Made by a program: the position numbers and the translations under genes
In this document: positions 4,994 to 51,975 of the stretch, piece by piece
How the letters are laid out: each line of letters starts with the position of its first letter
How positions within the stretch are numbered: the stretch's first letter is position 1
Sequence record: PZ445527.1
From: a phage
DNA length: 64,000 nt
Direction: 5' to 3' (one strand)
The notes under the pieces: generated by a model
Seen by the model: only the letters and a program-made list of their open reading frames with translations
Told to the model about the DNA's origin: nothing
Database searches by the model: none

Positions 4994-5022
4994 ATTATAC
5001 CAAAATTTTTAGCAAAAAGCAA
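4994..5022 (-). promoter_or_regulatory. sigma70-type promoter
   Basis: TTGCTT, 17 nt spacer, TATAAT. Confidence 0.55.
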
Positions 5023-12054: not shown

Positions 12055-12451
12055 GTTCTTCTCTCCGACGTTTGCATTCTTTCATCATATGAGCTGCTAC
12101 TACTTCATGGTAGTAGTCATTAATGTTATCTTCTGGCAAGAAATGCTTAATAGTCTCTAGCTGACAAATAACTCGATGAAGATGATTATTTGGTAGACAC
12201 AATTTCATACCTGCAACAAATCCAGAGAAGCCTGGAACACTGAACATGGGTTGGGCTTCTACTCTACCTTCAGAGTTGATATTAAGCTCAATTGAGATAC
12301 CCATTTTCATGCTATAAAGCTGGCAGTATTCCCCATTACCAGATCTTGACCAAATAGTGAAGTCTTCATCAATTTGATCTTGGATTTCTGTAATTGCAAA
12401 TTTAATTCTAGGATCTAAATTATTCATCTTCACCTTCAAAGTCGCAATCAT
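12032..12451 (-). CDS. hypothetical protein
   Basis: 139 aa ORF. Confidence 0.5.
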   Translation of the reverse strand: MIATLKVKMNNLDPRIKFAITEIQDQIDEDFTIWSRSGNGEYCQLYSMKMGISIELNINSEGRVEAQPMFSVPGFSGFVAGMKLCLPNNHLHRVICQLETIKHFLPEDNINDYYHEVVAAHMMKECKRRREEREKAKHQ

Positions 12452-13023: not shown

Positions 13024-13052
13024 ATTATAACAAGAAAAGAGAGGTTTAGCAA
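13024..13052 (-). promoter_or_regulatory. sigma70-type promoter
   Basis: TTGCTA, 17 nt spacer, TATAAT, leader ATATTTATAAATTGATGAGAGAGG. Confidence 0.65.
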
Positions 13053-14669: not shown

Positions 14670-14745
14670 AGTTAGTAGTGGAATCGAACCAGGTTCCACG
14701 GTTTACAAGACCGTTGCATCGCCAGCAATGCTTTAAGAGCTATCG
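14670..14745 (-). tRNA. tRNA-like element or fragment (anticodon-like loop CTTGTAA, TGT)
   Basis: T-loop GGTTCGATTCC and 3-prime ACCA present with a good anticodon stem-loop, but no pairing 5-prime acceptor strand found; abuts the 3-prime end of the HNH ORF. Confidence 0.3.
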
Positions 14746-15534: not shown

Positions 15535-15610
15535 TGGAGCGGCTAGAGGGAATCGAACCCTACTCAGCGAGGCTTGGAAGGCCTGCGACACAACCCGTGT
15601 GCTTAACCGC
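15535..15610 (-). tRNA. tRNA-Gly (anticodon TCC)
   Basis: Manual fold: acceptor GCGGTTA/TAGCCGC, anticodon loop CTTCCAA, T-loop TTCGATT, encoded CCA. Confidence 0.7.
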
Positions 15611-15618
15611 TTATTGTT

Positions 15619-16534: not shown

Positions 16535-16610
16535 GATGTATCAAGGAATAGAAGGACTTGAACCTTCATGAGTTAGACCATTTAACTCAACCGCTTTTTA
16601 GGGTATATTT
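16535..16610 (-). tRNA. tRNA-like element (unresolved)
   Basis: Perfect T-arm GAAGG-TTCAAGT-CCTTC on minus strand but acceptor and anticodon arms could not be paired by eye. Confidence 0.25.
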
Positions 16611-16679
16611 CTAGGAGTGGATGTTCCTAGTAAACCTATTCGGCAGTCCCGTCTACCAATTCCGGCATATTCCAAGATT

Positions 16680-16877: not shown

Positions 16878-16952
16878 TGGTGGACAGTAGGAGAGTCGAA
16901 CTCCTCACTCCTGAGTGCAAGTCAGGTATTTTCCCAGATAAACTAACCGCCC
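16878..16952 (-). tRNA. tRNA-Ala (anticodon TGC)
   Basis: Acceptor GGGCGGT with G3-U70 wobble, anticodon stem CCTGA/TCAGG with loop CTTGCAC, T-arm AGGAG-TTCGACT-CTCCT, CCA. Confidence 0.75.
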
Positions 16953-17191
16953 AAATTCTTTAATTTACTAAGGCTATTAGCTCGGCGTAACTACAGCACC
17001 TTCGCTTCAAGCGGAAGGAACCGCGTCATCTCGCAAACCCAATACACTATTCAGTTGCCGCTGAATCTAGTGGACTAATCTAGAACTTCTCCCGAGTCGT
17101 AGGGATCGTGCTTTTTGGCAGCCAGTCCTAGGTCGAGCTAATACCTTAGTGAATTATGATGAGGATTTCTCCCATATCAATTTATATAAAT

Positions 17192-17220
17192 ATTATAACA
17201 AGAAATTAATCATCAAGCAA
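17192..17220 (-). promoter_or_regulatory. sigma70-type promoter upstream of non-coding leader and tRNA-Ala/Leu/Ser
   Basis: TTGCTT, 17 nt spacer, TATAAT, then conserved leader ATATTTATATAAATTGA. Confidence 0.65.
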
Positions 17221-17321
17221 TTGAGTTTTTCTTGAAATTGGTAGCGGGTTCCAGTACTGCCCTGGACTTACTTAGCTTATGAGACTAAGAAGAACTCTAT
17301 GCCTTCCACCCGCAATTGTTT

Positions 17322-17400
17322 GGTTATTCTAGACAGGATTCGAACCTGTTATCACTTGTGCGGACTTACGAGAACCATTCTTTCACTCGAATCGAACGAG
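17322..17400 (-). tRNA. tRNA-like element (unresolved)
   Basis: Perfect T-arm ACAGG-TTCGAAT-CCTGT followed by ACCA; remaining arms not confidently paired. Confidence 0.3.
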
Positions 17401-17567
17401 CTTCTGCCCTAGCCAAGCTGGTTTCCCCATCAACCACGCTAGAATGTTTGATTGTTTTCAGTGCAAGAGTCCGAGTCTTGGACACGACCGTTTCGCAAGT
17501 ACATAGGCAGCTTATCATGAGTCAGCACTTCCGAATTGCTAGCCCCGTGTTCTGCACTGAAATTTTA

Positions 17568-17940: not shown

Positions 17941-18017
17941 TGGCGCGACTGATGGGATTTGAACCCACATTCCCTCCCGTGATAGGGGAGTACCATTACC
18001 AAGCCAGCCACGGTCGC
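17941..18017 (-). tRNA. tRNA with unusual anticodon loop CTATCAC (anticodon ATC, isotype uncertain)
   Basis: Acceptor GCGACCG/CAGTCGC, anticodon stem CTCCC/GGGAG, T-arm GTGGG-TTCAAAT-CCCAT, CCA encoded. Confidence 0.6.
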
Positions 18018-19229: not shown

Positions 19230-19357
19230 ACATTTAAAAGTATTCAAATACTAGTTTAAACACTTTTAAATATGTTTCCAAATTAGATAACTATTATACC
19301 AAGTTTTAAGGCACTGAGCAAGTCAGATTTTGAAGAACTTGCTCAGTGCTGTATTAG

Positions 19358-21976: not shown

Positions 21977-22479
21977 TTTAAGTATTTTTAAGAACTCTCG
22001 TAAAAACTCTTAAAAATACAGACGATACCGGGAGAGTCATAAGTCTCACTCATTAAGTATTTCAAGACAAAATACAGTAACGTCTATTATTTTCCAGTTT
22101 AAGTCAGGGTGACTTAGTGGTTATGTCCTGCGGTATATTGAGGACTCGGTTAGGCTTGGGGTCATGACTTCCCGCCTTTTGCTGCTACTCAACAGGAGTT
22201 ATCGCGAATTACCTGTGCTATTGTGCACCATTAGTGACATCTCTCATGCCAGCATTTCCCACTTTGTGGATAGCTTGAAAAACTACTCCGATACGGAGAA
22301 AGAACTTCACTATCCTAGAATACCTTCTAAAGTTCTTCTTTAGCCTGGACATAGTTAAATCGTAATAAAACTATTCAGCAGACCGGTTGGTTAGTCTGGA
22401 ACCAACTACCGCGTGGTTTAGGCAGTGCGCAACTAACCTCGGAAGCTTTTACGTTAAAAGCACCAGTTATCCAGTTCTT

Positions 22480-22552
22480 ACCGACCGTAGGATTCGAACC
22501 TACATCTTCCACCAGTTACGGCTTGATAATACCAATTATACTAGGACGGCAG
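22480..22552 (-). tRNA. tRNA-like element, possibly degenerate
   Basis: Canonical T-arm GTAGG-TTCGAAT-CCTAC and D-loop AATTGGTA, but no convincing anticodon stem and no encoded CCA. Confidence 0.3.
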
Positions 22553-29155: not shown

Positions 29156-29694
29156 TTATTAAGTTCCTCTAAAATAGGGGGTGGTTTTGTGGAATCAAAA
29201 GTTTCTATAACAGCGTTTTTACCGTGTAACTGTAGACGAAGTTCATTGGCACATTGAATGGCGGATTCTAGGTCTTTGTACTCAAAATAACCACCATATA
29301 CTGACTTTTTATCGGAGTCTCTAACATGTACTTGCCATTTCTGATTTTGCCTATTCCAGCTAATTCCTAGATAACCAGATTTACTTCTAGTGGTTTTATT
29401 TCTCTGATTCTCTTGGTAATTAGATTTCCTGAGATTAATCCATCTATTATCATCTCGTATGCGGTTTATGTGGTCTACCATTTCCGGTAGATAGCCTTCC
29501 ATATAGAGAAATGCTAGCTGATGCGCATAATATGGATTTTTATCCACGGATATAGTTATATATCCGTCTTTTCTTAGATGACCAGCAATACTTCCTATTT
29601 TTCCGTTTCTACCCCTGACTCCCGTCCTTCTAGTAAATATTCCGGTATCGGGGTTATAATCGAATAGTTCTTTTAATCTTTCTTGTGTGATCAT
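29152..29694 (-). CDS. HNH homing endonuclease (HNH plus AP2-like)
   Basis: 180 aa; N-terminus MITQERLKELFDYNPDTGIFT shared with ORFs at 5368 and 55085. Confidence 0.8.
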   Translation of the reverse strand: MITQERLKELFDYNPDTGIFTRRTGVRGRNGKIGSIAGHLRKDGYITISVDKNPYYAHQLAFLYMEGYLPEMVDHINRIRDDNRWINLRKSNYQENQRNKTTRSKSGYLGISWNRQNQKWQVHVRDSDKKSVYGGYFEYKDLESAIQCANELRLQLHGKNAVIETFDSTKPPPILEELNK

Positions 29695-30074
29695 TCATCT
29701 AACCATCCTATGTCTATACTAAGTAATGCTTTTATTCCTGTAATACCTGTACCATAGGTATTATATCGAATAGCACTTCTGCTCTTTACTTCAAGTATAT
29801 TTTCATACTCTGTATTTTCTAGAATTTCTGTAGATATACCTAAATATCCTGATTGATCTTCCTCGTCCCAACCCATATCTTCTAGAAGATTTAGACGTAA
29901 TTCTACCTTCTCATCTCCATTGCCTACAGAGTAGTAGTCTTCTAAAGTCCTGAATTTAGAAGTGATAGAGTCTAGTATTAATAATATCTGTTCCTTAGTA
30001 ATAGTTTCTTTATCACCCTGTAAGTAATTGGAGTAATTCAGAAGGGCTTGTTCTAATTCAATTTCTTTACTCAT
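29691..30074 (-). CDS. hypothetical acidic protein
   Basis: 127 aa ORF. Confidence 0.5.
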   Translation of the reverse strand: MSKEIELEQALLNYSNYLQGDKETITKEQILLILDSITSKFRTLEDYYSVGNGDEKVELRLNLLEDMGWDEEDQSGYLGISTEILENTEYENILEVKSRSAIRYNTYGTGITGIKALLSIDIGWLDE

Positions 30075-30174
30075 TTTATTATCCTTTTGTACTTATTGAG
30101 TATATTATATTTAAAATTATACCTAATAAGCAGGTACAATTTCAAATATAATAGCCCCGAAAGGGCTATTTGAG

Positions 30175-31014
30175 TTAAGAAGACATCTTAGCTTTAAGAG
30201 CTGGGTGAGGATCATACCCCTCCAAATGGAATGACCAAGCTGCCGTATTATTTTCTAGTAAGTCGTAAAGATCTACAAATTCTGGCATTACTAGAGTCGG
30301 TAAAGGACGAGGTTTACGTTTTACCTGTTCTTCTACCTGTTCCATGTGGTCATTATAGATATGAGTATCGCCGCCACTAAAGATAAGGTAGCGAGGTTTT
30401 AATCCTGTCAGTTTTGCTAATATATGCGTTAATAAAGCATAACTAGCAATGTTGAAAGGTAAACCGAGGAAACAATCCACAGAACGTTGTGTCCATTTAA
30501 GATCTAGGTATCCATCGTTACTTACATAGCACTGGAAGCCGTAGTGACAGGGTGGTAATGCCATTTTATCAAGTTCAGCTACGTTCCATGCAGATACTAG
30601 GTGTCTGCGACCATGTGGGTTATTTTTGAGTCCCTCAATAAGTTCTATAATCTGATCTCGTCCACCAAAGTTGCGCCATTGTTTACCATATACTGGCCCT
30701 AGATTACCTTTGTCATAACCCATACTTATGGCTTGGTCTTCGTAGTTTGGAGTCCATATAGTCCATTGCCCCTCATCACACCCAAAAGTGAATACACGTA
30801 GATCATGAAGATTTGTGGAACCAGACAAGAACCATAAAAGTTCTCCTACTACTGATTTCCAGGCCAGGCGTTTAGTAGTTACAGCCGGGAACCCTTCACG
30901 TAGATCGAACTTAGCATAGGAATCAAAAATTGAAACTGTGCCTGTTCCTGTACGGTCATTACGGGGTTCACCTAGTAAAATTACATCTGTCAAAATTTTT
31001 AAGTATTGTTGCAT
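30175..31014 (-). CDS. thyA: thymidylate synthase
   Basis: 279 aa; conserved ThyA active-site region PPCHYGFQCYV. Confidence 0.9.
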   Translation of the reverse strand: MQQYLKILTDVILLGEPRNDRTGTGTVSIFDSYAKFDLREGFPAVTTKRLAWKSVVGELLWFLSGSTNLHDLRVFTFGCDEGQWTIWTPNYEDQAISMGYDKGNLGPVYGKQWRNFGGRDQIIELIEGLKNNPHGRRHLVSAWNVAELDKMALPPCHYGFQCYVSNDGYLDLKWTQRSVDCFLGLPFNIASYALLTHILAKLTGLKPRYLIFSGGDTHIYNDHMEQVEEQVKRKPRPLPTLVMPEFVDLYDLLENNTAAWSFHLEGYDPHPALKAKMSS

Positions 31015-31547
31015 TAATAAGTAACCAATTCCTGTACAAATCGCAGGCTGTTATCACTGTTTGCGCCAACTGCATAGACTAATCGAGTGGATTCATAGTT
31101 ATAATCCAGTATCATACTATCTAGGTGTGTATCTGCCTCTAGCTTCTGTTCGCTAAAGATTGTAGATACAAAAGCACTTTCAATATGCCCATGTTGGTAC
31201 ATTTCTAGAAGAAGACTAGCTCCACCTAGAACTACTGTTTGCTGATCTTTTAGAAAGGTAGGTAATGTATCACCTATCATTGATATGGGAGTGTAAATAT
31301 CGTGTGTAATATCGTCTGGCAGTGGACGATCAGCACGAATAAATAGGTCAGAAGCTCCAATCATACGTTCCCTAACGGTATATGGAAGAGCTAAATAAGT
31401 ACCCGCACCAATGATGATATTATCGGGATTCAACACGTCCAGTTGGGAATAGAAAGCATTCAGCTCTTCCTTGAAGGAGCCCCAAGGAAGCTTACCCCGG
31501 AGGCCGAACTCCCCATTCGGCCCAACTGCATACATTGCTGTAATCAT
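31014..31547 (-). CDS. dihydrofolate reductase
   Basis: 177 aa; N-terminal MITAMYAVGPNGEFG and position between thyA and nrdB. Confidence 0.8.
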   Translation of the reverse strand: MITAMYAVGPNGEFGLRGKLPWGSFKEELNAFYSQLDVLNPDNIIIGAGTYLALPYTVRERMIGASDLFIRADRPLPDDITHDIYTPISMIGDTLPTFLKDQQTVVLGGASLLLEMYQHGHIESAFVSTIFSEQKLEADTHLDSMILDYNYESTRLVYAVGANSDNSLRFVQELVTY

Positions 31548-32689
31548 AGGAAATCTCCAAATTCATTACCCAAATCTTTCAGGGTATCCATAGACGTTTC
31601 TGTGACTTGACCTACACGGTAGGCTGCACCAATCTGGATTTCTTGTGGAGCAGGCTGTAGAGAGGTAGTATCCAACCAGTTCATGATCCACGGAATAGGG
31701 TTTTTGGTGATTACTGGTAAGTGACTAGGCCATTCTACACCAATGTGCATAAATGCATTACGCCCCACAAAGTACAGATATTCTTCTAGAAGTTCTGCAT
31801 TCAAACCAATCAGACTACGACCTTTGAAGATGAAATGACCCCATTCAATTTCAGTTTTCAGAGTTTTCAGGAGCTGTGCTGGTGCTTTAGCCACTGCTTC
31901 ATCTACCAGATCTTTGTCAAACTGCTGGAACATAATCTGGATGATTGTTTTAGACATCTGCGTGTGAAGGGCCTCATCCTTAGCAATCAACTGCAGATTT
32001 TTAGCAATACCTTGCAGAATATCGTTCTCTGCTAACGCAAAGGTACATGCAAAGGATGCGTAGAACTGCATTGCTTCCAGACCGTAGATTGCAAAATAAG
32101 CATCTAACAGTTTAGCCTGAGTTTCACGCTTAACTTCAGGGAACTCAGTTTCTGGGTATGTATTGTCACCACGATGATCACGTACTGCGATGAAATACTG
32201 ACCTAACTGGTACAGTTCATCAAATAGTTCAACAGAATCTGCGATACGTGCAAATGCTTCTTGGTTTTTAGTTACAGAATCAATAAATTCTGCCGGATCA
32301 GTCAACACATTACGAATAATATTGCTATAGGCACGACTATGCAGGTCTTCAAAGTAGCTCCACTGTTTTAGCATTCCTTCCAGTTCAGGGCGGCTTACAA
32401 GCGGCATAATAGCTGCTTCAGGTGCGCGACTAATGAAAGAATCTGTTTGGGTCTGCCATGCTAAGTTCAGGAGTGTAATTTCCTGAATTTCACGAGGGAG
32501 GTTAGGCCATTGTTTCTTATCAGCCTCTAAACTGATTTCTGTCTCAGTCCAAAATTGAGAGCGTTGCAGAAGTGCCAGACGCTCTAATTCTGGATGTGCT
32601 ACGCGTACATAATCTGCGATACCTAGAGAATCGCCCAGGAAAAGATCAGCGTTAGTATGATCCCAATTCAGGTTTAGTAAAGTAGTCAT
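31544..32689 (-). CDS. nrdB: ribonucleotide reductase small subunit
   Basis: 381 aa; iron-ligand and tyrosyl-radical region typical of class Ia R2. Confidence 0.9.
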   Translation of the reverse strand: MTTLLNLNWDHTNADLFLGDSLGIADYVRVAHPELERLALLQRSQFWTETEISLEADKKQWPNLPREIQEITLLNLAWQTQTDSFISRAPEAAIMPLVSRPELEGMLKQWSYFEDLHSRAYSNIIRNVLTDPAEFIDSVTKNQEAFARIADSVELFDELYQLGQYFIAVRDHRGDNTYPETEFPEVKRETQAKLLDAYFAIYGLEAMQFYASFACTFALAENDILQGIAKNLQLIAKDEALHTQMSKTIIQIMFQQFDKDLVDEAVAKAPAQLLKTLKTEIEWGHFIFKGRSLIGLNAELLEEYLYFVGRNAFMHIGVEWPSHLPVITKNPIPWIMNWLDTTSLQPAPQEIQIGAAYRVGQVTETSMDTLKDLGNEFGDFL

Positions 32690-32720
32690 TGATTTTCCTC
32701 TTTCTCACTATTTCAGGAAT

Positions 32721-32749
32721 ATTATAGCAAATCAGATAGCGATTAGCAA
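32721..32749 (-). promoter_or_regulatory. sigma70-type promoter upstream of nrdB
   Basis: TTGCTA, 17 nt spacer, TATAAT. Confidence 0.6.
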
Positions 32750-32755
32750 GTAAAA

Positions 32756-33262
32756 TTATAAACTATCAAGCTCCAATAGTTTAGCATCACGCCATTCTAT
32801 AGCATCCTCTAATTCTTTAAATGTTTTTGTATATTTTACGCCTTTACGAGCTATCTGGACTTGATATGATCCACTAGCTTTTTGATGAATATTTTTAATA
32901 CCTAGCTTATTGTCTTTATGCGCCCCGACATTCTTTCCGTTACTGAATCTATCAGAAGCTACTAGGTTAATAGCTCTATTATCATGTCGTATTCTATTAT
33001 CGTGGTCTACTTCAGGTGGCAGATACCCATGAATTTTAGCAAAGATTACCCTATGGGCTAAGTAGGGGTATCCTTTAATATTTAATACTATATATCCTGT
33101 AGATTTATCTAAGGAGCCTGCTGGTTTTCCGGCATATTTGGTATTAAATGTTTTATTATCTCTAGGTCTATGAGTCAATATTCCAGTATATGGATCATAA
33201 TCAAATAATTTAGCTACCTCTAGATGATCTTCTAATGTTTTTGACATAATTATAATTTCCAA
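32756..33262 (-). CDS. HNH homing endonuclease
   Basis: 168 aa; AHRVIFAKIHGYLPPEVDHDNRIRHDNRAINL; sits between nrdA and nrdB. Confidence 0.75.
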   Translation of the reverse strand: MEIIIMSKTLEDHLEVAKLFDYDPYTGILTHRPRDNKTFNTKYAGKPAGSLDKSTGYIVLNIKGYPYLAHRVIFAKIHGYLPPEVDHDNRIRHDNRAINLVASDRFSNGKNVGAHKDNKLGIKNIHQKASGSYQVQIARKGVKYTKTFKELEDAIEWRDAKLLELDSL

Positions 33263-33311
33263 CCAATTAGTATAAAAATAAGAGGGTTATAATTAACCCT
33301 CTTTACTAGTT

Positions 33312-36300
33312 TTATAAGGTGCAGCCACCTGAAGAACATCCTGTAGTTTCTCCAGCTCCTCCACCATTCGCAGTGTTAAAGTTAGCATAATACCAGGTTT
33401 TTATACCATACTTAACCGCAGTCATAAAGTCACGAACTACTACTGGGCCAGGGATGATTTCATTCTCGAATTTAGAGTAATCATAATACATCTGGAAACT
33501 TGATGACTGACTCAAGAATTTTTGGTAAACGGCGTTCCACTTGATCCACTCAATACGATCTACATCATAGGCCAGTTTATAGCTCATGAGAGTATCCCAA
33601 TCAGTTGCACCTGGGGCAATTGCAATTACTTTATTCACTGCACTACCCTTGATAGATACAATCTTACGAGGTGGTTCAATAGAGTTAGTAACGCCTAACA
33701 GAACAGAGGAACTTTCTCCCGGCATCTGCGCAGTCAGAACAGAGTTACGCATACCGTATTTCAGAATGTCTGCACGCAGAGATTCCCAATCCATTTCTAG
33801 ACCTACGGATACCAGCTCATCAACAGTTTTCTTATACGTGTCGATTACCAGAATTCCTTTGGATGGTTTAGTACGATTAAACCATTCACATGCACCTTGT
33901 TCTTTAGCCAGACGTACAGAGGCTTTATGTAGGAAGTAAGACAGTTTTTCAGCTTCACGATGAATCCAGTTACGTGCTTCAACGCCTTCATAAGCCAAAC
34001 CTTCCGCCGCCATTGCACCTGCTGCGTTCATCAGACCAATACCAACATTACGACGTTTCTTAGCCGTATATTCCATAGTTGGGAACGGATAATCCTGAAT
34101 TTCAATGATGGTATCAACGAATTTCAGGAGGATGTAGCAAGTTTTCTCCCACTCAGCCAGAGATTCCATGCGTCCTAGTACAACACCACCTAAGTTACAC
34201 AGAGATACTTCACCAATATCCTCTGGCTTCATTTGATCAAGCTGCTCTTTTGTCTTATACAGCTCTGTGATATGATGGAACGGGCGTGTAGGCTGAGTAA
34301 TTTCTACACAGTTACCCGCTAAAATGCCATTAAATACACCTAAGTTTAATTTAGGTTCTGTAAAGCAATAAGTATCACTAATACGACCAGTAAACTCAAC
34401 GTTAGTTACAGTTACAAAACGGGTTGCGTCTCTATTGGGGCGTGTTAGGTTTAAGAGTTTCTCTTTATCCAAAGAGAGTCCTAAATCTTTAAGTTTCCAG
34501 AAGCCACTACTCCCCACAATAAGCCTACTAGTCTCCTTGCAGTGGTATAGTTTACTAGTACCAGTACCATCTGGTAACTCGTGGTCACCTTCTTTGCGTC
34601 CTAAAATAATCTTGCTAGTAACCCCCAATTCTAGTAACAAATCCTTCACTTTACTTAGAAAATCAGGCTCTGCCGAAGCAACCACAATACTAGGAGTTGT
34701 GCCATTTTTCTGTATGCAGCCATCTGCATCTAAATATCCCTCTAACCATTTGATACGGCTATCAATAGTATACTCTGGGCCAGGTACAAAATACTTCGGC
34801 ATTAAATCAGACTTAACAATATAGCTCAGTCTACCTGTGCTGTCCAGTAATCCACTTCCCTGAATTTCTGCGTCAATTTTATCCACTAATGGTAGTTTGC
34901 CACCTTTTTCATAGAAGTACAGCTTAGGTTCTCCATGTCTTCCATAAGTTCCATCTCCAGTGAAGAAACCGTTAGTATAAGGAGATTTTAGTACCATATT
35001 TCCATGATCTACAATAGGATTACTAAATTTAGGCATTTTCATACCTACTTGCAAGTCTACTGCTCGTACCTCTTCTAGCCCCTGTTTGAAAGAGGTACGA
35101 CGATCCTCTCTGACATATTTGGGCTGGTGGTAGAACTTATGATAAAGAGTAGATTCAATAGTAGATCCATCAGAGAATGTGATTTTTATCAACTCCTGAG
35201 CTTCCCCAGTTTTAGTAGGGATAACTGTTGACCATTCTTGTCCGTTCCAAATCTCTACTTCTTTACCAACTAAATCAATAATCTCTATGTTACCATTTTT
35301 GGTTAAAATTTTTGTTTCTGGAGCTACACAAAGGTTTGTCATACGGATTGGATCAAGGAAGTTACCGTGACGATTAGATTCCCCGATGTGGTGCGCATAC
35401 ATACGTCCTGTTTCCATTCGGATACGTAGCCAAGTATCTAGGATTTCTTTTGCAGAGACTTTAGGAGCTGCTGGAACTGTTTTTCCTTCGTGGTCGATCT
35501 TTGTAAGAGATGCCACACGTTTCTCCGCTGCCACGTAGATTTCTTCAAATTTAGCCTCGTCATCACTATAAAACGCTTCATGAACTTCTGGAGCATAGAA
35601 GTATGACATTAGCGTAATATCTTCATTTTTCAGATAACGTTTTAACAAAAGATTGTTGAAGCTCAGAGAATAATCCATCTTATCAATTTTATTCTCGTCT
35701 GTAGCACGTTGTTGCTTAACCTGCATCAACTGAATGATTTCAGGGTCAAAGTATGGATAAGACACTGTAGCAGAACCACCACGAGTTTGCTGAGTATTGG
35801 CCTTTACTGAGCGATCAATGTGTCGATAATATGGCAGTTTTCCGGAATGCGGGAATGCCCCATTTCGCACCGGATCAGCAATTGATCTGCTTTCAAGATG
35901 ATACCCGATTCCCGCTCTGGCTGCAACCATTTTGAAGACGATGTGCTCGGCGGTGTCGATTGAATCCAACGTGTCAGTGGAATCCACGAGGCAGCAACTA
36001 GCAAATCCACGGTCACTAGAGCGCAGACCAACCAGTGGCGGCGTAGGAACGTTGATTTTGTGGAGCGACATTGCGTTGTAGAGGTCGATTGCATCTAGAA
36101 TTGTCCAGTTAGGTTGAGATAACATCGCCATTGCCATACCCATGTAGGCAAACTGCGGAGTTTCATAAATTTCACCAGTGGCTATGTTGCGGCGGGAATA
36201 CTTATCAAAGAACTGCTTCAGTCCACCACTAGTAAAAAGACGGTCACGATCATGGTCGATAACCTGATTCAGAGCTTCAAATTGCTCATCGGTAATCCAT

Positions 36301-36659
36301 GCACTCATGTCTTCCCATGCACCTACGCTAACCATGTGGTCATGGAAGAAGCGCAGAGAAGGTGGTTCGAAGGAATCATAAAGGCGTTTACGCATTTGCG
36401 CAAGACGTAATTCCTTTGCTGGCACATCGTATGCTGGGTTATCTTTGATAAGGCTTTCAGCAGCCTTAATTAATGCGTCCATCAGAGTGTCGGAATCTAC
36501 AACCCCTTTAGGCAGAGTTTTTTGAGCAGCCATAGTAATGGCTGACCAACTTACATCAACTGTTTTGCAACCATACTCTGCCCAACCATTGAGTTTTTCA
36601 GGAGCAAAGTCTTCTACAGTACCGTCACGTTTAATTACTTTTTCAATGCGATGGCTCAT
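33312..36659 (-). CDS. nrdA: ribonucleotide reductase large subunit with in-frame intein
   Basis: ORF 33312..36764; start placed at MSHRIEKVIKRDG Met by comparison with NrdA N-termini; class Ia R1 motifs throughout; about 340 extra residues inserted at the NLC active-site motif. Confidence 0.9.
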   Translation of the reverse strand: MSHRIEKVIKRDGTVEDFAPEKLNGWAEYGCKTVDVSWSAITMAAQKTLPKGVVDSDTLMDALIKAAESLIKDNPAYDVPAKELRLAQMRKRLYDSFEPPSLRFFHDHMVSVGAWEDMSAWITDEQFEALNQVIDHDRDRLFTSGGLKQFFDKYSRRNIATGEIYETPQFAYMGMAMAMLSQPNWTILDAIDLYNAMSLHKINVPTPPLVGLRSSDRGFASCCLVDSTDTLDSIDTAEHIVFKMVAARAGIGYHLESRSIADPVRNGAFPHSGKLPYYRHIDRSVKANTQQTRGGSATVSYPYFDPEIIQLMQVKQQRATDENKIDKMDYSLSFNNLLLKRYLKNEDITLMSYFYAPEVHEAFYSDDEAKFEEIYVAAEKRVASLTKIDHEGKTVPAAPKVSAKEILDTWLRIRMETGRMYAHHIGESNRHGNFLDPIRMTNLCVAPETKILTKNGNIEIIDLVGKEVEIWNGQEWSTVIPTKTGEAQELIKITFSDGSTIESTLYHKFYHQPKYVREDRRTSFKQGLEEVRAVDLQVGMKMPKFSNPIVDHGNMVLKSPYTNGFFTGDGTYGRHGEPKLYFYEKGGKLPLVDKIDAEIQGSGLLDSTGRLSYIVKSDLMPKYFVPGPEYTIDSRIKWLEGYLDADGCIQKNGTTPSIVVASAEPDFLSKVKDLLLELGVTSKIILGRKEGDHELPDGTGTSKLYHCKETSRLIVGSSGFWKLKDLGLSLDKEKLLNLTRPNRDATRFVTVTNVEFTGRISDTYCFTEPKLNLGVFNGILAGNCVEITQPTRPFHHITELYKTKEQLDQMKPEDIGEVSLCNLGGVVLGRMESLAEWEKTCYILLKFVDTIIEIQDYPFPTMEYTAKKRRNVGIGLMNAAGAMAAEGLAYEGVEARNWIHREAEKLSYFLHKASVRLAKEQGACEWFNRTKPSKGILVIDTYKKTVDELVSVGLEMDWESLRADILKYGMRNSVLTAQMPGESSSVLLGVTNSIEPPRKIVSIKGSAVNKVIAIAPGATDWDTLMSYKLAYDVDRIEWIKWNAVYQKFLSQSSSFQMYYDYSKFENEIIPGPVVVRDFMTAVKYGIKTWYYANFNTANGGGAGETTGCSSGGCTL
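34311..35330 (-). mobile_element. intein with LAGLIDADG homing endonuclease inside nrdA
   Basis: Insert begins with Cys (CVAPET), ends GILAGN followed by +1 Cys of extein NL-CVEITQP; contains GFFTGDGTYG and LEGYLDADGC motifs. Confidence 0.8.
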
Positions 36660-36803
36660 TTGGTTTTCCTTTTTATAGTTATCAGGATTTAAGGAATATT
36701 CTACATTATTATTGGTCATTAGGCAAATAAAATTTTCTGATAGAAAAGGCCCGAGTATTTTCATACCCAGGCCCTCTGTGTTGTCAGTCTAGTTTTTGGC
36801 CAC

Positions 36804-37001
36804 TTAAGTTCTCAGCAGAATATCTATCGAGGTACTTAGTTCACTATAATTGAAGGGCCGATTTGGATTTGAGGTTACAATTTTCCACGCTAGGGTAGTC
36901 TTAGGACTTTCTTCCCCTTCCTTACGTGTAATCATATTAGCAGCGCTCAGTGAAGTACGATGTATTTTAGTTTTTCGGTGTAGATGTACAACGTCTCCCA
37001 T
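36804..37001 (-). CDS. small hypothetical protein
   Basis: ATG 2 nt after phoH stop, preceded by GGGGAAGG RBS; low confidence. Confidence 0.3.
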   Translation of the reverse strand: MGDVVHLHRKTKIHRTSLSAANMITRKEGEESPKTTLAWKIVTSNPNRPFNYSELSTSIDILLRT

Positions 37002-37002
37002 A

Positions 37003-37755
37003 TTACACCTTCCCCATGTCTTTAAAAATATCGTAGAATGCTTTAGACTCAGCAGAACGAACGTTATCAATTAATTCGATCATTGAGAATGGAGCATTTT
37101 CATATTTCTCATAAACTTCCATAAGAAGTGCTAGACCTGAGTCACCTTTAATGTCTTTCTGAGCTATATCCCCGCAGATAATCAAACGGCAGTCTTGTCC
37201 TACACGAGTTAGGAGACAAACCATTGCCTCAACGGAAATATTCTGAGCTTCATCGACAATTACATAGGAGTTGTTGAAAGTTCTGCCACGAGCATGTTCT
37301 ATAGCCAAAAATTTAATTTTCTGACGTTCGACATATCCCTTATAGGCATGATCACCGATGGCCCATTTCATACCATCAGCTATTGGCTCCAACCAAGGCT
37401 CTAGCTTTTCGGCTAGATCACCAGGAAGCATACCAAGAGACTTACCTAGAGGTTCATTAGGACGTACGAGAATCACTTGCTCAATATCTGAGTGAATGTC
37501 TACGAGTTCCTGAGCTGCAAGAACGGACGGAATAAAGGTTTTACCAGTACCTGGCTCACCGATACCCACAGTCACTGTGTTGTTCTTGATCATATTGATA
37601 TATGATTTTTGCTCGCGGTTTTTACCTACTAGGGATTTAGCAACTGGGTTAGCGTAATCATTAGAAAAATCAGCCTGAATTACGTTATTCTCATATTTGT
37701 TGCCACGCTTTCTTGAACCATTGCGGTTCTCTCTTTTTTGACGTGCTTTTCCCAT
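37003..37755 (-). CDS. phoH: PhoH-like ATPase
   Basis: Walker A GEPGTGKT and VIVDEAQN Walker B; start at MGKARQ Met after AGGAGTG RBS. Confidence 0.85.
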   Translation of the reverse strand: MGKARQKRENRNGSRKRGNKYENNVIQADFSNDYANPVAKSLVGKNREQKSYINMIKNNTVTVGIGEPGTGKTFIPSVLAAQELVDIHSDIEQVILVRPNEPLGKSLGMLPGDLAEKLEPWLEPIADGMKWAIGDHAYKGYVERQKIKFLAIEHARGRTFNNSYVIVDEAQNISVEAMVCLLTRVGQDCRLIICGDIAQKDIKGDSGLALLMEVYEKYENAPFSMIELIDNVRSAESKAFYDIFKDMGKV

Positions 37756-37830
37756 AAATAACACTCCTATAGTGTACTTCGCTTCTAACAGAGGATCAAC
37801 AAAAGATCTTGTTTATCAACTTACAAATAT

Positions 37831-37859
37831 ATTATACCAGTATATACAGTAAAAAGCAA
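37831..37859 (-). promoter_or_regulatory. sigma70-type promoter upstream of phoH
   Basis: TTGCTT, 17 nt spacer, TATAAT. Confidence 0.6.
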
Positions 37860-38030
37860 CTACAATTTTAAATAAGCCTATGATATTGCATTTAAATAAA
37901 AAATTTGCTTGCTTATAGAGGTAGAAATATGATACTAGATAATCATTTATTTATATGTAAAAATACTATGCTGTATAGCATCAATAAAAATTGATAAAAA
38001 TCAAAAGTCAAATAGTATTAGAAAAATGTA
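37860..38030. promoter_or_regulatory. AT-rich divergent intergenic region with palindromes at the strand switch
   Basis: No ORF; AT-rich; contains palindrome ATGCTGTATAGCAT; lies between outward-facing promoters. Confidence 0.35.
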
Positions 38031-38031
38031 G

Positions 38032-38060
38032 TTGACGTATGGGGTGGAATTATGTATAAT
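38032..38060 (+). promoter_or_regulatory. sigma70 promoter
   Basis: TTGACG, 17 nt spacer, TATAAT, then AAGGAG RBS and ATG at 38082. Confidence 0.7.
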
Positions 38061-38081
38061 ATGTGAATTAAGGAGAATTTA

Positions 38082-38747
38082 ATGGTAAGAAAGAAAATAA
38101 CTACAGAAGATGTGAACTTAGCACTTGCTCCCAGAGGAATAATTATGCTAAGCACGTATATATCAGCTAAATCCAATGCTATATTTAAGTGCTCTAATGG
38201 GCATAGTTGGGAGGCTAGAGTAGATAATGTAAAAGGTGGGAGAGGTTGCCCTTATTGTGCTAGTCGTACTTTAGATCTTAAAGAGGTAAATGAATCCTTA
38301 GCTGCTCGTGGAATAAAGATGGAAGGTAAATACATCAATTCTAAGAGTAAAATTATGTTCAGCTGTGAGAATGATCATAGGTGGGAGTCTACCCTTGATA
38401 GTGTTAGAAATCATAATTCTGGTTGTCCTATATGTTTATTAGAGAAGGATAATTATCCTACTAACGTATATATTTTAGTAAGTAGTATGGGAACCAAAAT
38501 AGGGATGTCTAGCAGAACTAAAGATAGACTCAGAGATATTAAAACTTCTTCTAACATACATGATTTAAAAATATTTAAGGAATATAGCTTTTCAGATAGA
38601 TCAAAAGCTGTGCGTATTGAAAGAGAAGCCCATTTACAGTTTAAGGAATATAATTGTCAGTACAAAGATTTTGATGGTGCTACAGAATTTTTTAGTATTG
38701 AGCCAGAAGTAGTAGCAAGGTTTATTGAGGAAATAATTAATGAATAA
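38082..38747 (+). CDS. zinc-ribbon plus T5orf172/GIY-YIG-like nuclease-domain protein (putative homing endonuclease)
   Basis: 221 aa; two CxxGHxW...CPxC zinc-ribbon repeats and C-terminal region VYILVSS...RLRDIKTS...REAHLQFKEY resembling the T5orf172 domain. Confidence 0.55.
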   Translation: MVRKKITTEDVNLALAPRGIIMLSTYISAKSNAIFKCSNGHSWEARVDNVKGGRGCPYCASRTLDLKEVNESLAARGIKMEGKYINSKSKIMFSCENDHRWESTLDSVRNHNSGCPICLLEKDNYPTNVYILVSSMGTKIGMSSRTKDRLRDIKTSSNIHDLKIFKEYSFSDRSKAVRIEREAHLQFKEYNCQYKDFDGATEFFSIEPEVVARFIEEIINE

Positions 38748-48974: not shown

Positions 48975-48995
48975 CAATTACCGAAAAATTTCAGT

Positions 48996-49024
48996 TGCTT
49001 AATCCTACAATTCTTGATATAATA
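48996..49024 (+). promoter_or_regulatory. sigma70 promoter
   Basis: TTGCTT, 17 nt spacer, TATAAT. Confidence 0.65.
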
Positions 49025-51946: not shown

Positions 51947-51975
51947 TTGCTAAATGCTTAAATACTTGCTATAAT
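51947..51975 (+). promoter_or_regulatory. sigma70 promoter upstream of ligase B
   Basis: TTGCTA, 17 nt spacer, TATAAT, leader ATTTATATAAATTGATAAGGAAG. Confidence 0.7.

Follow-up and report, generated by a model that had tools for sequence, protein, structure and literature searches.

What does a T5-like phage transcribe from the roughly 240 nucleotides (nt) that separate an early promoter from the first downstream transfer RNA (tRNA) gene? The question arises in a 64,000-nt stretch of phage DNA (PZ445527.1; hereafter, the window) at positions 16,953 to 17,220, where an initial annotation had noted some 230 nt lacking a meaningful open reading frame (ORF) and had suggested that they form a processed leader or else a small RNA of the phage. 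The window comes from a T5-like phage (Demerecviridae) whose tRNA region is read on the minus strand, and all features described below lie on that strand unless stated otherwise. It is practically certain that what lies here is the orthologue, in this phage, of “RNA 2H” from T5 and BF23 (here, RNA2H), along with its early promoter P13b. The best overall explanation, to which we assign a moderate probability, joins this identity to a conserved pseudoknotted fold, release by RNase III, and action in trans by shape. The locus is already annotated in relatives, and its detection here is the re-discovery of a known gene; what is new is (i) a covariation-supported pseudoknotted fold, (ii) a hypothesis of RNase III excision, (iii) the spread of the element over six Demerecviridae lineages, and (iv) its absence from Rfam.

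At the equivalent place, T5 st0 (AY692264) carries in succession the annotations “promoter P13b”, a misc_RNA “RNA2H” of 172 nt, and tRNA-Ala. The BF23 record (NC_042564/AJ604530) describes RNA 2H as a “stable RNA with unknown functions”, and Salmonella phage 5 (AJ604531) has the same feature. The three phages share with the window the sequence, the promoter, the strand, and the site upstream of tRNA-Ala and tRNA-Leu. In pairwise alignment, the window unit is ~99% identical to that of T5 with few differing positions; the closing helix P1 has one compensatory change at its base (A-U for G-C), and the loop of hairpin P3 has two substitutions. Megablast matches the region in 444 phage records, and 425 records cover at least 80% of the query in blastn. 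T5 differs in what precedes the element: there, the promoter and RNA2H follow the block RNAIV-P13a-ORF-tRNA-Pro-tRNA-fMet-ORF-tRNA-Lys-tRNA-Val, whereas in the window they directly follow an 83-nt tRNA-like segment. A literature search found no paper that assigns a function to RNA2H or describes the RNA.

The T5-like copies point to a conserved structured RNA. An alignment of 28 distinct copies from Tequintavirus and Epseptimavirus (72–98% identity) has 97.9% paired cells and 17 pairs that have changed on both sides, values that none of 500 shuffles reaches, while slid controls are 30–44% paired. About 45 nt are invariant across all 28 copies, even at identities to the window as low as ~72%. 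The 233-nt transcript folds better than all 200 of its shuffles (z = −4.07). Covariance model R1, built from the T5-like/Epseptimavirus sequences, scores the window unit at 232 bits in the sense orientation versus 29.5 bits in antisense, and conserved G-U pairs also favor the transcribed strand. The conserved structure and its compensatory changes (the initial annotation had proposed a check of structural conservation across T5-like genomes), the position at the head of a tRNA unit, and the match to annotated RNA 2H together support its suggestion of a processed leader or small RNA.

These data also bear on whether the locus could instead be a small protein gene or an element at the DNA level, for example the target of a homing endonuclease or the end of a mobile element. 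Some automated annotations do place “hypothetical protein” ORFs across RNA2H, mostly antisense, and homing endonuclease genes lie nearby in relatives. However, no sense-strand ORF of at least 20 amino acids exists in 16953-17191, in line with the initial annotation, and the sole ORF at the locus is a 28-amino-acid GTG frame on the opposite strand, across the promoter. The conserved small coding frame in relatives that would have spoken for a protein is not seen, and insertions and deletions are not consistently multiples of three. In addition, substitutions compensate one another within helices, including G-U pairs that are workable on one strand only, insertions differ in length, and synteny in the tRNA region is broadly kept. 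The probability of a protein gene or DNA-level element is therefore negligible.

The complete conserved unit, as delimited by R1 and the alignments, comprises 194 nt from P1 base to P1 base (16962..17155). P1 is a closing helix of 21–22 base pairs (bp) with an invariant bulged G. Its 5′ strand (17134..17154) consists of an outer part, AUUCACUAAGG, and an inner part, UAUUAGCUCG, with 100% of cells paired in the 28 sequences and two compensatory pairs. The 3′ strand (16963..16984), placed by covariation and geometry, reads CGAGCUAAUA, the bulged G (16974), and CCUUAGUAAAU. A helix descriptor finds no second P1-type helix in the 64-kb window, that of RNA2H being the only one.

Within P1, the 5′ strand of P2 (ACCU, 17130..17133) pairs with GGGU (17037..17040), and both strands covary across lineages. 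The 5′ strand of the pseudoknot PK1 (GGACUG, 17123..17128) pairs with UAGUCC (17072-17077) in the loop of the P4 hairpin, UCUAG-AUUAGUCCA-CUAGA (17066..17084); the P4 stem covaries, and PK1 occupies the same position in 7/7 lineage representatives. A tentative second pseudoknot, PK2, would form between UGCC (17117..17120) and GGCA (17056-17059) in the loop of the P5 hairpin UUCAG-CGGCAA-CUGAA (17050..17065), which is invariant in T5-like phages. An A-rich linker (17106-17116) follows the PK1 strand and the candidate PK2 strand. P3 (17090..17105) is a variable UCCC-loop-GGGA hairpin with a compensatory CC/GG to UG/CA change in 10 of the 28 sequences, and it is the site of 23–26-nt expansions in many Epseptimavirus copies. 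P6 (16985..17034) is a long irregular hairpin, which contains GCGGTTCCTTCCGC and in which 10 of 15 pairs have changed on both sides between two sequence types that adopt one shape.

Three alternative pairings were discarded in favor of this model. The short hairpin GCGGTTCCTTCCGC singled out by the initial annotation is present in the window (~17024-17011), but as a conserved pairing it fails, because relatives with GTAG for GCGG (GUAG in the RNA) break its pairing with the unchanged CCGC. The bases of GCGGTTCCTTCCGC covary instead with a downstream strand (GCGGU/GCUGU to GUAGU/GCUAU). Similarly, the pairing CUAGGACU/AGUUCUAG predicted from the minimum free energy of a single sequence is broken by UCUGAU/AUCAGA variants that keep P4, and an RNAalifold consensus that merged PK1 into a nested helix was replaced by P4 plus PK1. 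Loop-shuffle tests are too weak to prove PK1 or PK2 in individual lineages; PK1 is accepted because it is positionally consistent and shows compensatory changes, not on the strength of those tests. We hold the fold of P1 to P6 plus PK1 with high confidence, with PK2 as a tentative addition.

Beyond the T5-like copies, a 36-nt blast match led to those of Klebsiella Sugarlandvirus, and the covariance model found others in Proteus (Novosibvirus) and Providencia (Priunavirus) phages and in Pectobacterium phage DU_PP_V. RNA2H thus occurs in six lineages of Demerecviridae with Enterobacterales hosts: Tequintavirus, Epseptimavirus, Sugarlandvirus, Novosibvirus, Priunavirus, and the Pectobacterium phage. 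Pattern scans of IMG/VR and metagenomes returned only copies from T5-like, Sugarlandvirus, Proteus, Providencia, and Pectobacterium phages plus chance matches, which a filter on P1 pairing tells apart (19–21 pairs in true matches, at most 17 in chance ones). In the 10–50 kb part of Aeromonas phage AhSzw-1 that was searched, neither the covariance model nor the helix descriptor finds a homologue.

Covariation across the six lineages backs P1, P2, P3, P4, P5, P6, and PK1, and the helices of Sugarlandvirus, Novosibvirus, Priunavirus, and DU_PP_V stand at equivalent positions with different sequences. In every lineage, P1 comprises an inner helix of 9–10 bp, the bulged G, and an outer helix of 11 bp, its sequence being wholly different in the five other lineages; the inner helix is UAUUAGCUCG in T5 and AAUUAAUCUG, UAUGUGUAUA, UAUGUGUGC, UAUAUGUAUA, or UAUAACCUAG elsewhere, each with its complement. 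P2, which is ACCU/GGGU in T5, becomes AUAC/GUAU, GCU/GGC, AACU/AGUU, GACC/GGUC, or GCAG/CUGU. PK1 always starts 1–2 nt past an invariant A that follows P2 and changes from GGACUG/UAGUCC in T5 to AGUC/GACU, AGCC/GGCU, GAACUA/UGGUUC, GAACCA/UGGUUU, or GAACCG/UGGUUC. Variants of the P4 stem are UCUGAU/AUCAGA, GGAG/CUCC, GGGA/UCCC, GUGAGA/UCUCAC, and UCCG/CGGA, and the P5 stem in other lineages is ACGC/GCGU, GGU/ACC, GGAU/AUCC, GACU/AGUC, or GGG/CCC. The candidate PK2 strands are UGCC, ACCA, or GCCAA opposite GGCA, UGGU, or UUGGC in the P5 loop, with one covarying column, in which Sugarlandvirus and the Pectobacterium phage have A-U for G-C; PK2 is not individually significant.

Two irregular arrangements were observed among these copies. 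Klebsiella phage vB_Kpn_3 (MZ079855, L042 1296-1536) carries a chimera of a Sugarlandvirus 5′ half and a T5/Epseptimavirus-type 3′ half, so that pairing is lost in P2 and in the inner helix of P1. This copy arose either by natural recombination, which left the RNA broken, or as an artefact of assembly; the record is a “partial genome” that contains gaps. The Providencia and Proteus phages (L060 ~490-520, L061, L049 ~12335-12360) carry a second copy of the outer P1 3′ strand, CUUUAAUCAACU, which directly precedes the P1 5′ strand, AGUUGAUUAAAG. The extra copy could compete with P1 by folding into a local hairpin instead, or it could be a direct repeat at the border of RNA2H.

The geometry of P1 provides a clue to how the RNA may be released. 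The T5 misc_RNA (L001:2859-3030) corresponds to unit positions 13-184, and ends transferred from the T5 and BF23 annotation predict a mature RNA2H of 172 nt in the window (16972..17143). Cuts at these ends would fall, on the 5′ strand, between the outer and inner halves of P1 and, on the 3′ strand, two paired nt into the outer half. A helix of about two turns would then be broken near its midpoint, with a stagger that leaves a 3′ overhang of 2 nt plus the bulged G. Staggered breaks of this kind within a helix are the hallmark of RNase III, and the stems around 16S and 23S ribosomal RNA (rRNA) are an example. P1, at 21–22 bp in all six lineages, also reaches the double-stranded length of at least ~20 bp expected of an RNase III substrate. 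From the geometry of P1 and the overhang at the annotated ends, we infer excision by RNase III, with a likelihood only a little better than even. Host RNase III would cut mid-P1 beside the bulged G and so release the 172-nt RNA, whose terminal helix would have 10 bp and end in a 2-nt 3′ overhang. Beyond this cut, tRNA-Ala would keep a 5′ leader of ~19 nt for removal by RNase P. That P1 keeps its length and bulge despite full sequence turnover fits a measured protein-recognition site. Established RNase III processing stems (those flanking 16S/23S rRNA and the R1.1-type sites of phage T7) likewise arise where the sequences on either side of a stable RNA pair over about two helical turns; RNA2H, whose cut is presumed from its geometry, differs in having an invariant bulged G at that point, which is unusual.

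The inferred T5 cut gives a 3′ end ...GCC that resembles a tRNA end awaiting its final A, and the element sits in a tRNA cluster, both of which would suit a degenerate tRNA or tRNA pair akin to the neighboring “tRNA-like” rna1, rna2, and rna3. Such an origin is nevertheless scarcely credible: neither ARAGORN nor the Rfam tRNA model (RF00005) has a match in 16953-17191, there is no T-loop or cloverleaf, and the GCC end is not conserved, being GCU in the Proteus and Providencia phages. Homology to rna2 or other T5 small RNAs was rejected as well, since no sequence similarity exists.

The promoter at 17192..17220, as called by the initial annotation, is upheld. It consists of the −35 hexamer TTGCTT (17215..17220), which aligns to the annotated P13b of T5 and BF23, a 17-nt spacer, and the extended −10 element TGT-TATAAT (17192..17200), which is the same in all promoter-carrying T5-like, Epseptimavirus, and Sugarlandvirus copies. 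A generic sigma-70 scan makes no call at 17192-17220 because TTGCTT agrees with TTGACA at only three of six positions. The motif TTGCT-N15-TGNTATAAT, with at most one mismatch, occurs 12 times in the window versus 0.21 expected from shuffles, on strands that track gene direction; this excess and the strand agreement mark the site as a member of the phage's own promoter family and not a chance occurrence. The classic T5 promoter PN25 also has TTGCTT and TATAAT as its hexamers. Judged by its sequence, the site is a sigma-70 extended −10 promoter of this family that would drive a minus-strand non-coding transcript. Other family sites include 4994-5022, 13024-13052, 19293-19321, 48995-49023, and 51947-51975; sites up to ~38 kb are on the minus strand and those from ~43.8 kb onward on the plus strand, which marks a switch of transcription direction.

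The stretch behind this promoter is the promoter-proximal part of a tRNA-Ala/Leu/Ser transcription unit. tRNA-Ala(UGC) (16878..16952; ARAGORN and Rfam) is the first tRNA downstream, co-transcribed with RNA2H and separate from it, and tRNA-Leu and then tRNA-Ser follow on the same strand. Between the presumed start site (~17185) and P1 lies a 5′ leader hairpin (17157..17179) that is imperfect in the window and forms a perfect 10-bp stem, UUGAUGAGGA-GAAA-UCCUCAUCAA, in T5. It is missing in Sugarlandvirus, where P1 starts 9 nt past the −10 element, and in copies lacking an adjacent promoter, and is therefore placed outside the core RNA.

The surroundings of RNA2H vary among phages. Depending on the phage, it is followed by tRNA-Ala, tRNA-Leu, or unrelated small ORFs, the last in Proteus, Providencia, and some Epseptimavirus genomes, and the adjacent promoter-like site is missing in Proteus, Providencia, and several Epseptimavirus phages. 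Linkage to a downstream ORF was rejected because these ORFs are not homologous. Linkage to an upstream protein was also rejected, as the 115-amino-acid ORF of the window has no relationship to the 117-amino-acid ORF that precedes RNA2H in Epseptimavirus, and Pfam gave no match for either. RNA2H is an independently folding RNA module.

Varying neighbors, a promoter that is sometimes missing, and the lack of a terminator argue against a riboswitch, a leader of one particular gene, and an obligatory promoter-proximal antiterminator. A riboswitch-like cis-regulator, in which an aptamer would control the downstream gene, draws some appeal from the compact pseudoknotted fold, the conserved junction nucleotides, and the A-rich linker, all typical of ligand-binding aptamers. 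It is nonetheless highly unlikely given that no expression platform is apparent (neither a terminator-like site after P1 nor, in T5, a sequestered ribosome-binding site), that the downstream genes are not homologous to each other, and that no Rfam 15 riboswitch matches at E up to 10. Only slightly less improbable is a processive antitermination RNA like HK022 put, which would bind RNA polymerase and allow read-through of the long untranslated tRNA region. RNA2H is indeed promoter-proximal in T5-like phages (~30 nt past the start site) and in Sugarlandvirus, and the RNA downstream is largely untranslated and in principle exposed to Rho. Yet the phages without an adjacent promoter-like site do not fit this role, RNase III excision, if real, precludes tethering to the polymerase, the sister promoter P13a has no such element, and there is neither resemblance to put nor an Rfam match.

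A further cis-acting role is that of a processing or insulator cassette, in which the stem would serve as an RNase III entry site that separates promoter-proximal RNA from the tRNA precursors and the excised RNA would be a by-product. RNA2H heads the tRNA operon in T5-like phages and Sugarlandvirus, the geometry of P1 is its most strictly conserved feature, further stem-closed elements occur in these tRNA regions, and the element is dispensable (see below). A processing stem, however, requires no conserved interior of 150 nt, whereas P2, PK1, P4, and P5 covary across six lineages and the ~45 nt noted above are invariant in 28 copies; moreover, unrelated ORFs and not tRNAs stand after RNA2H in Proteus, Providencia, and some Epseptimavirus phages. 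We consider the cassette unlikely, though less so than the other alternatives.

Searches place RNA2H outside the known families. The Rfam/Infernal scan that the initial annotation had advised, run on Rfam 15 with 9 kb at E up to 1 and with the element alone and a Klebsiella Sugarlandvirus copy at E up to 10, matched no sense-strand family and returned only noise, namely, a small nucleolar RNA on the wrong strand and one long non-coding RNA. The transfer-messenger RNA, RNase P, and self-cleaving ribozyme families of Rfam 15 likewise have no sense-strand match at E up to 10. blastn finds no match in 5,426 E. coli genomes and 72,556 plasmids, and the core pattern has no match in 185,579 GTDB genomes; mimicry of a host RNA was rejected on these grounds.

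Among known RNAs, the closest in setting are the T4 species 1/2 RNAs (rnaC and rnaD), which are also small stable RNAs of unknown function in a phage tRNA cluster; no homology to RNA2H was detected, and the T4 tRNA region has no R1 match and no P1-type helix. The bacterial Y RNA YrlA, 6S RNA, ROOL, and GOLLD resemble RNA2H in being stem-closed, modular non-coding RNAs, and they bind proteins or self-assemble. ROOL and GOLLD often lie beside tRNAs in phages. These RNAs differ from RNA2H in size (172–220 nt in RNA2H) and pseudoknot architecture, and none gave an Rfam 15 match. To our knowledge, Ro/Rsr is absent from E. coli K-12.

The combination favored here, an RNA2H orthologue whose conserved fold is released by RNase III, extends to function as follows. 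Excised RNA2H would accumulate and, by virtue of its shape, bind a small ligand or a protein of the host or phage in trans. Antisense pairing seems less likely than such recognition of shape, because the fold itself engages every conserved nucleotide and the variable parts, P3 and P6, lie at its periphery. The specific role of a trans-acting protein- or ligand-binding RNA is put forward tentatively, with less confidence than the processing step.

Several points weigh against this combination. No result here points to a binding partner, and RNA2H might have no trans function at all. RNase III cleavage is deduced from geometry alone, textbook descriptions of the enzyme's substrates do not include a bulged nucleotide where the cut falls, and the overhang in the Proteus and Providencia phages would be CU and not CC. 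Both the “stable RNA” label and the end coordinates rest on GenBank annotation. PK2 is weakly supported and is disrupted by one natural variant (L025).

Deletion mutants show how far the phage depends on the element. T5Mos (deletion 30661-38625) and T5-123 (deletion 29191-32442) are viable T5 mutants described in the PARIS study (PMC11464382), and RNA2H (AY587007, 31729-31900) lies inside both deletions. Since both remove it, the gene is accessory under laboratory conditions.

The surrounding tRNA region holds further elements. tRNA-Ala (16878-16952) differs from its T5 counterpart by many substitutions, mostly stem-compensatory, and adjoins the nearly identical RNA2H (16962-17155); comparison of the two sequences suggests mosaic exchange of tRNA alleles beside a frozen RNA2H. 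The tRNA-like segment upstream of the promoter (17240-17322, 83–87 nt) has an acceptor-like GCGGGU/ACCCGC pairing, two arms, and a UACCA end, replaces the T5 block from RNAIV to tRNA-Val, and receives no call from ARAGORN or Rfam. Next to it, 17323-17447 is the orthologue of T5 “rna2” (125 nt, “tRNA-like RNA with unknown functions”), with a canonical T-arm, CAGGUUCGAAUCCUG, and an 8-bp closing stem. A stem-closed element, UUUCAGUGCA.../...UGCACUGAAA (17455-17563, z = −2.67), lies between the 115-amino-acid ORF and “rna2”; its T5 counterpart (L001 1634-1754) carries no annotation. Proteus phage 1 (L049 17075-17282) has, just upstream of tRNA-Asp, a second, unrelated stem-closed RNA of ~200 nt with a 19-bp closing helix and a bulged G (z = −5.7), an indication that closing stems with a bulged G recur as processing modules across such tRNA regions.

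In the window, tRNA-Asp (17941-18017) has the anticodon AUC (loop CCCCUAUCACGGG) versus GUC in T5 (CCCCUGUCACGGG); A34 is unusual for a bacterial-type tRNA-Asp and could alter decoding or the recognition of this tRNA by anticodon nucleases. An additional Rfam tRNA or tRNA-like match at 22479-22550 (35.5 bits, above the gathering score) is not called by ARAGORN. Nor are the weaker Rfam tRNA-like matches at 15538-15611, 14670-14740, and 16543-16612, the last of which falls where the window aligns to T5 “rna1”. A tRNA-Lys, the tRNA known to suppress PARIS, is not among the ARAGORN calls for the 64 kb.

The tRNA region of T5 encodes several “stable RNAs with unknown functions”, in the GenBank wording for T5 and BF23. 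Recent work shows that neighboring tRNA genes of this dispensable region counteract host defenses; the T5 tRNA-Lys, for one, neutralizes PARIS (PMC11464382). The accessory status of RNA2H agrees with the counter-defense and host-range role demonstrated for those genes, and such a role is plausible for RNA2H as well. A bolder and improbable proposal is that RNA2H founds a new functional class, an RNase III-released, pseudoknotted, high-copy decoy or sponge for a host RNA-targeting defense or processing protein or for a nucleotide signal. If this were true, a decoy RNA2H would be the RNA counterpart of the counter-defense role of the neighboring T5 tRNAs. Now that RNA2H has a model of its secondary structure with a defined pseudoknot, and a proposed mechanism of processing that can be tested, its function becomes directly addressable.

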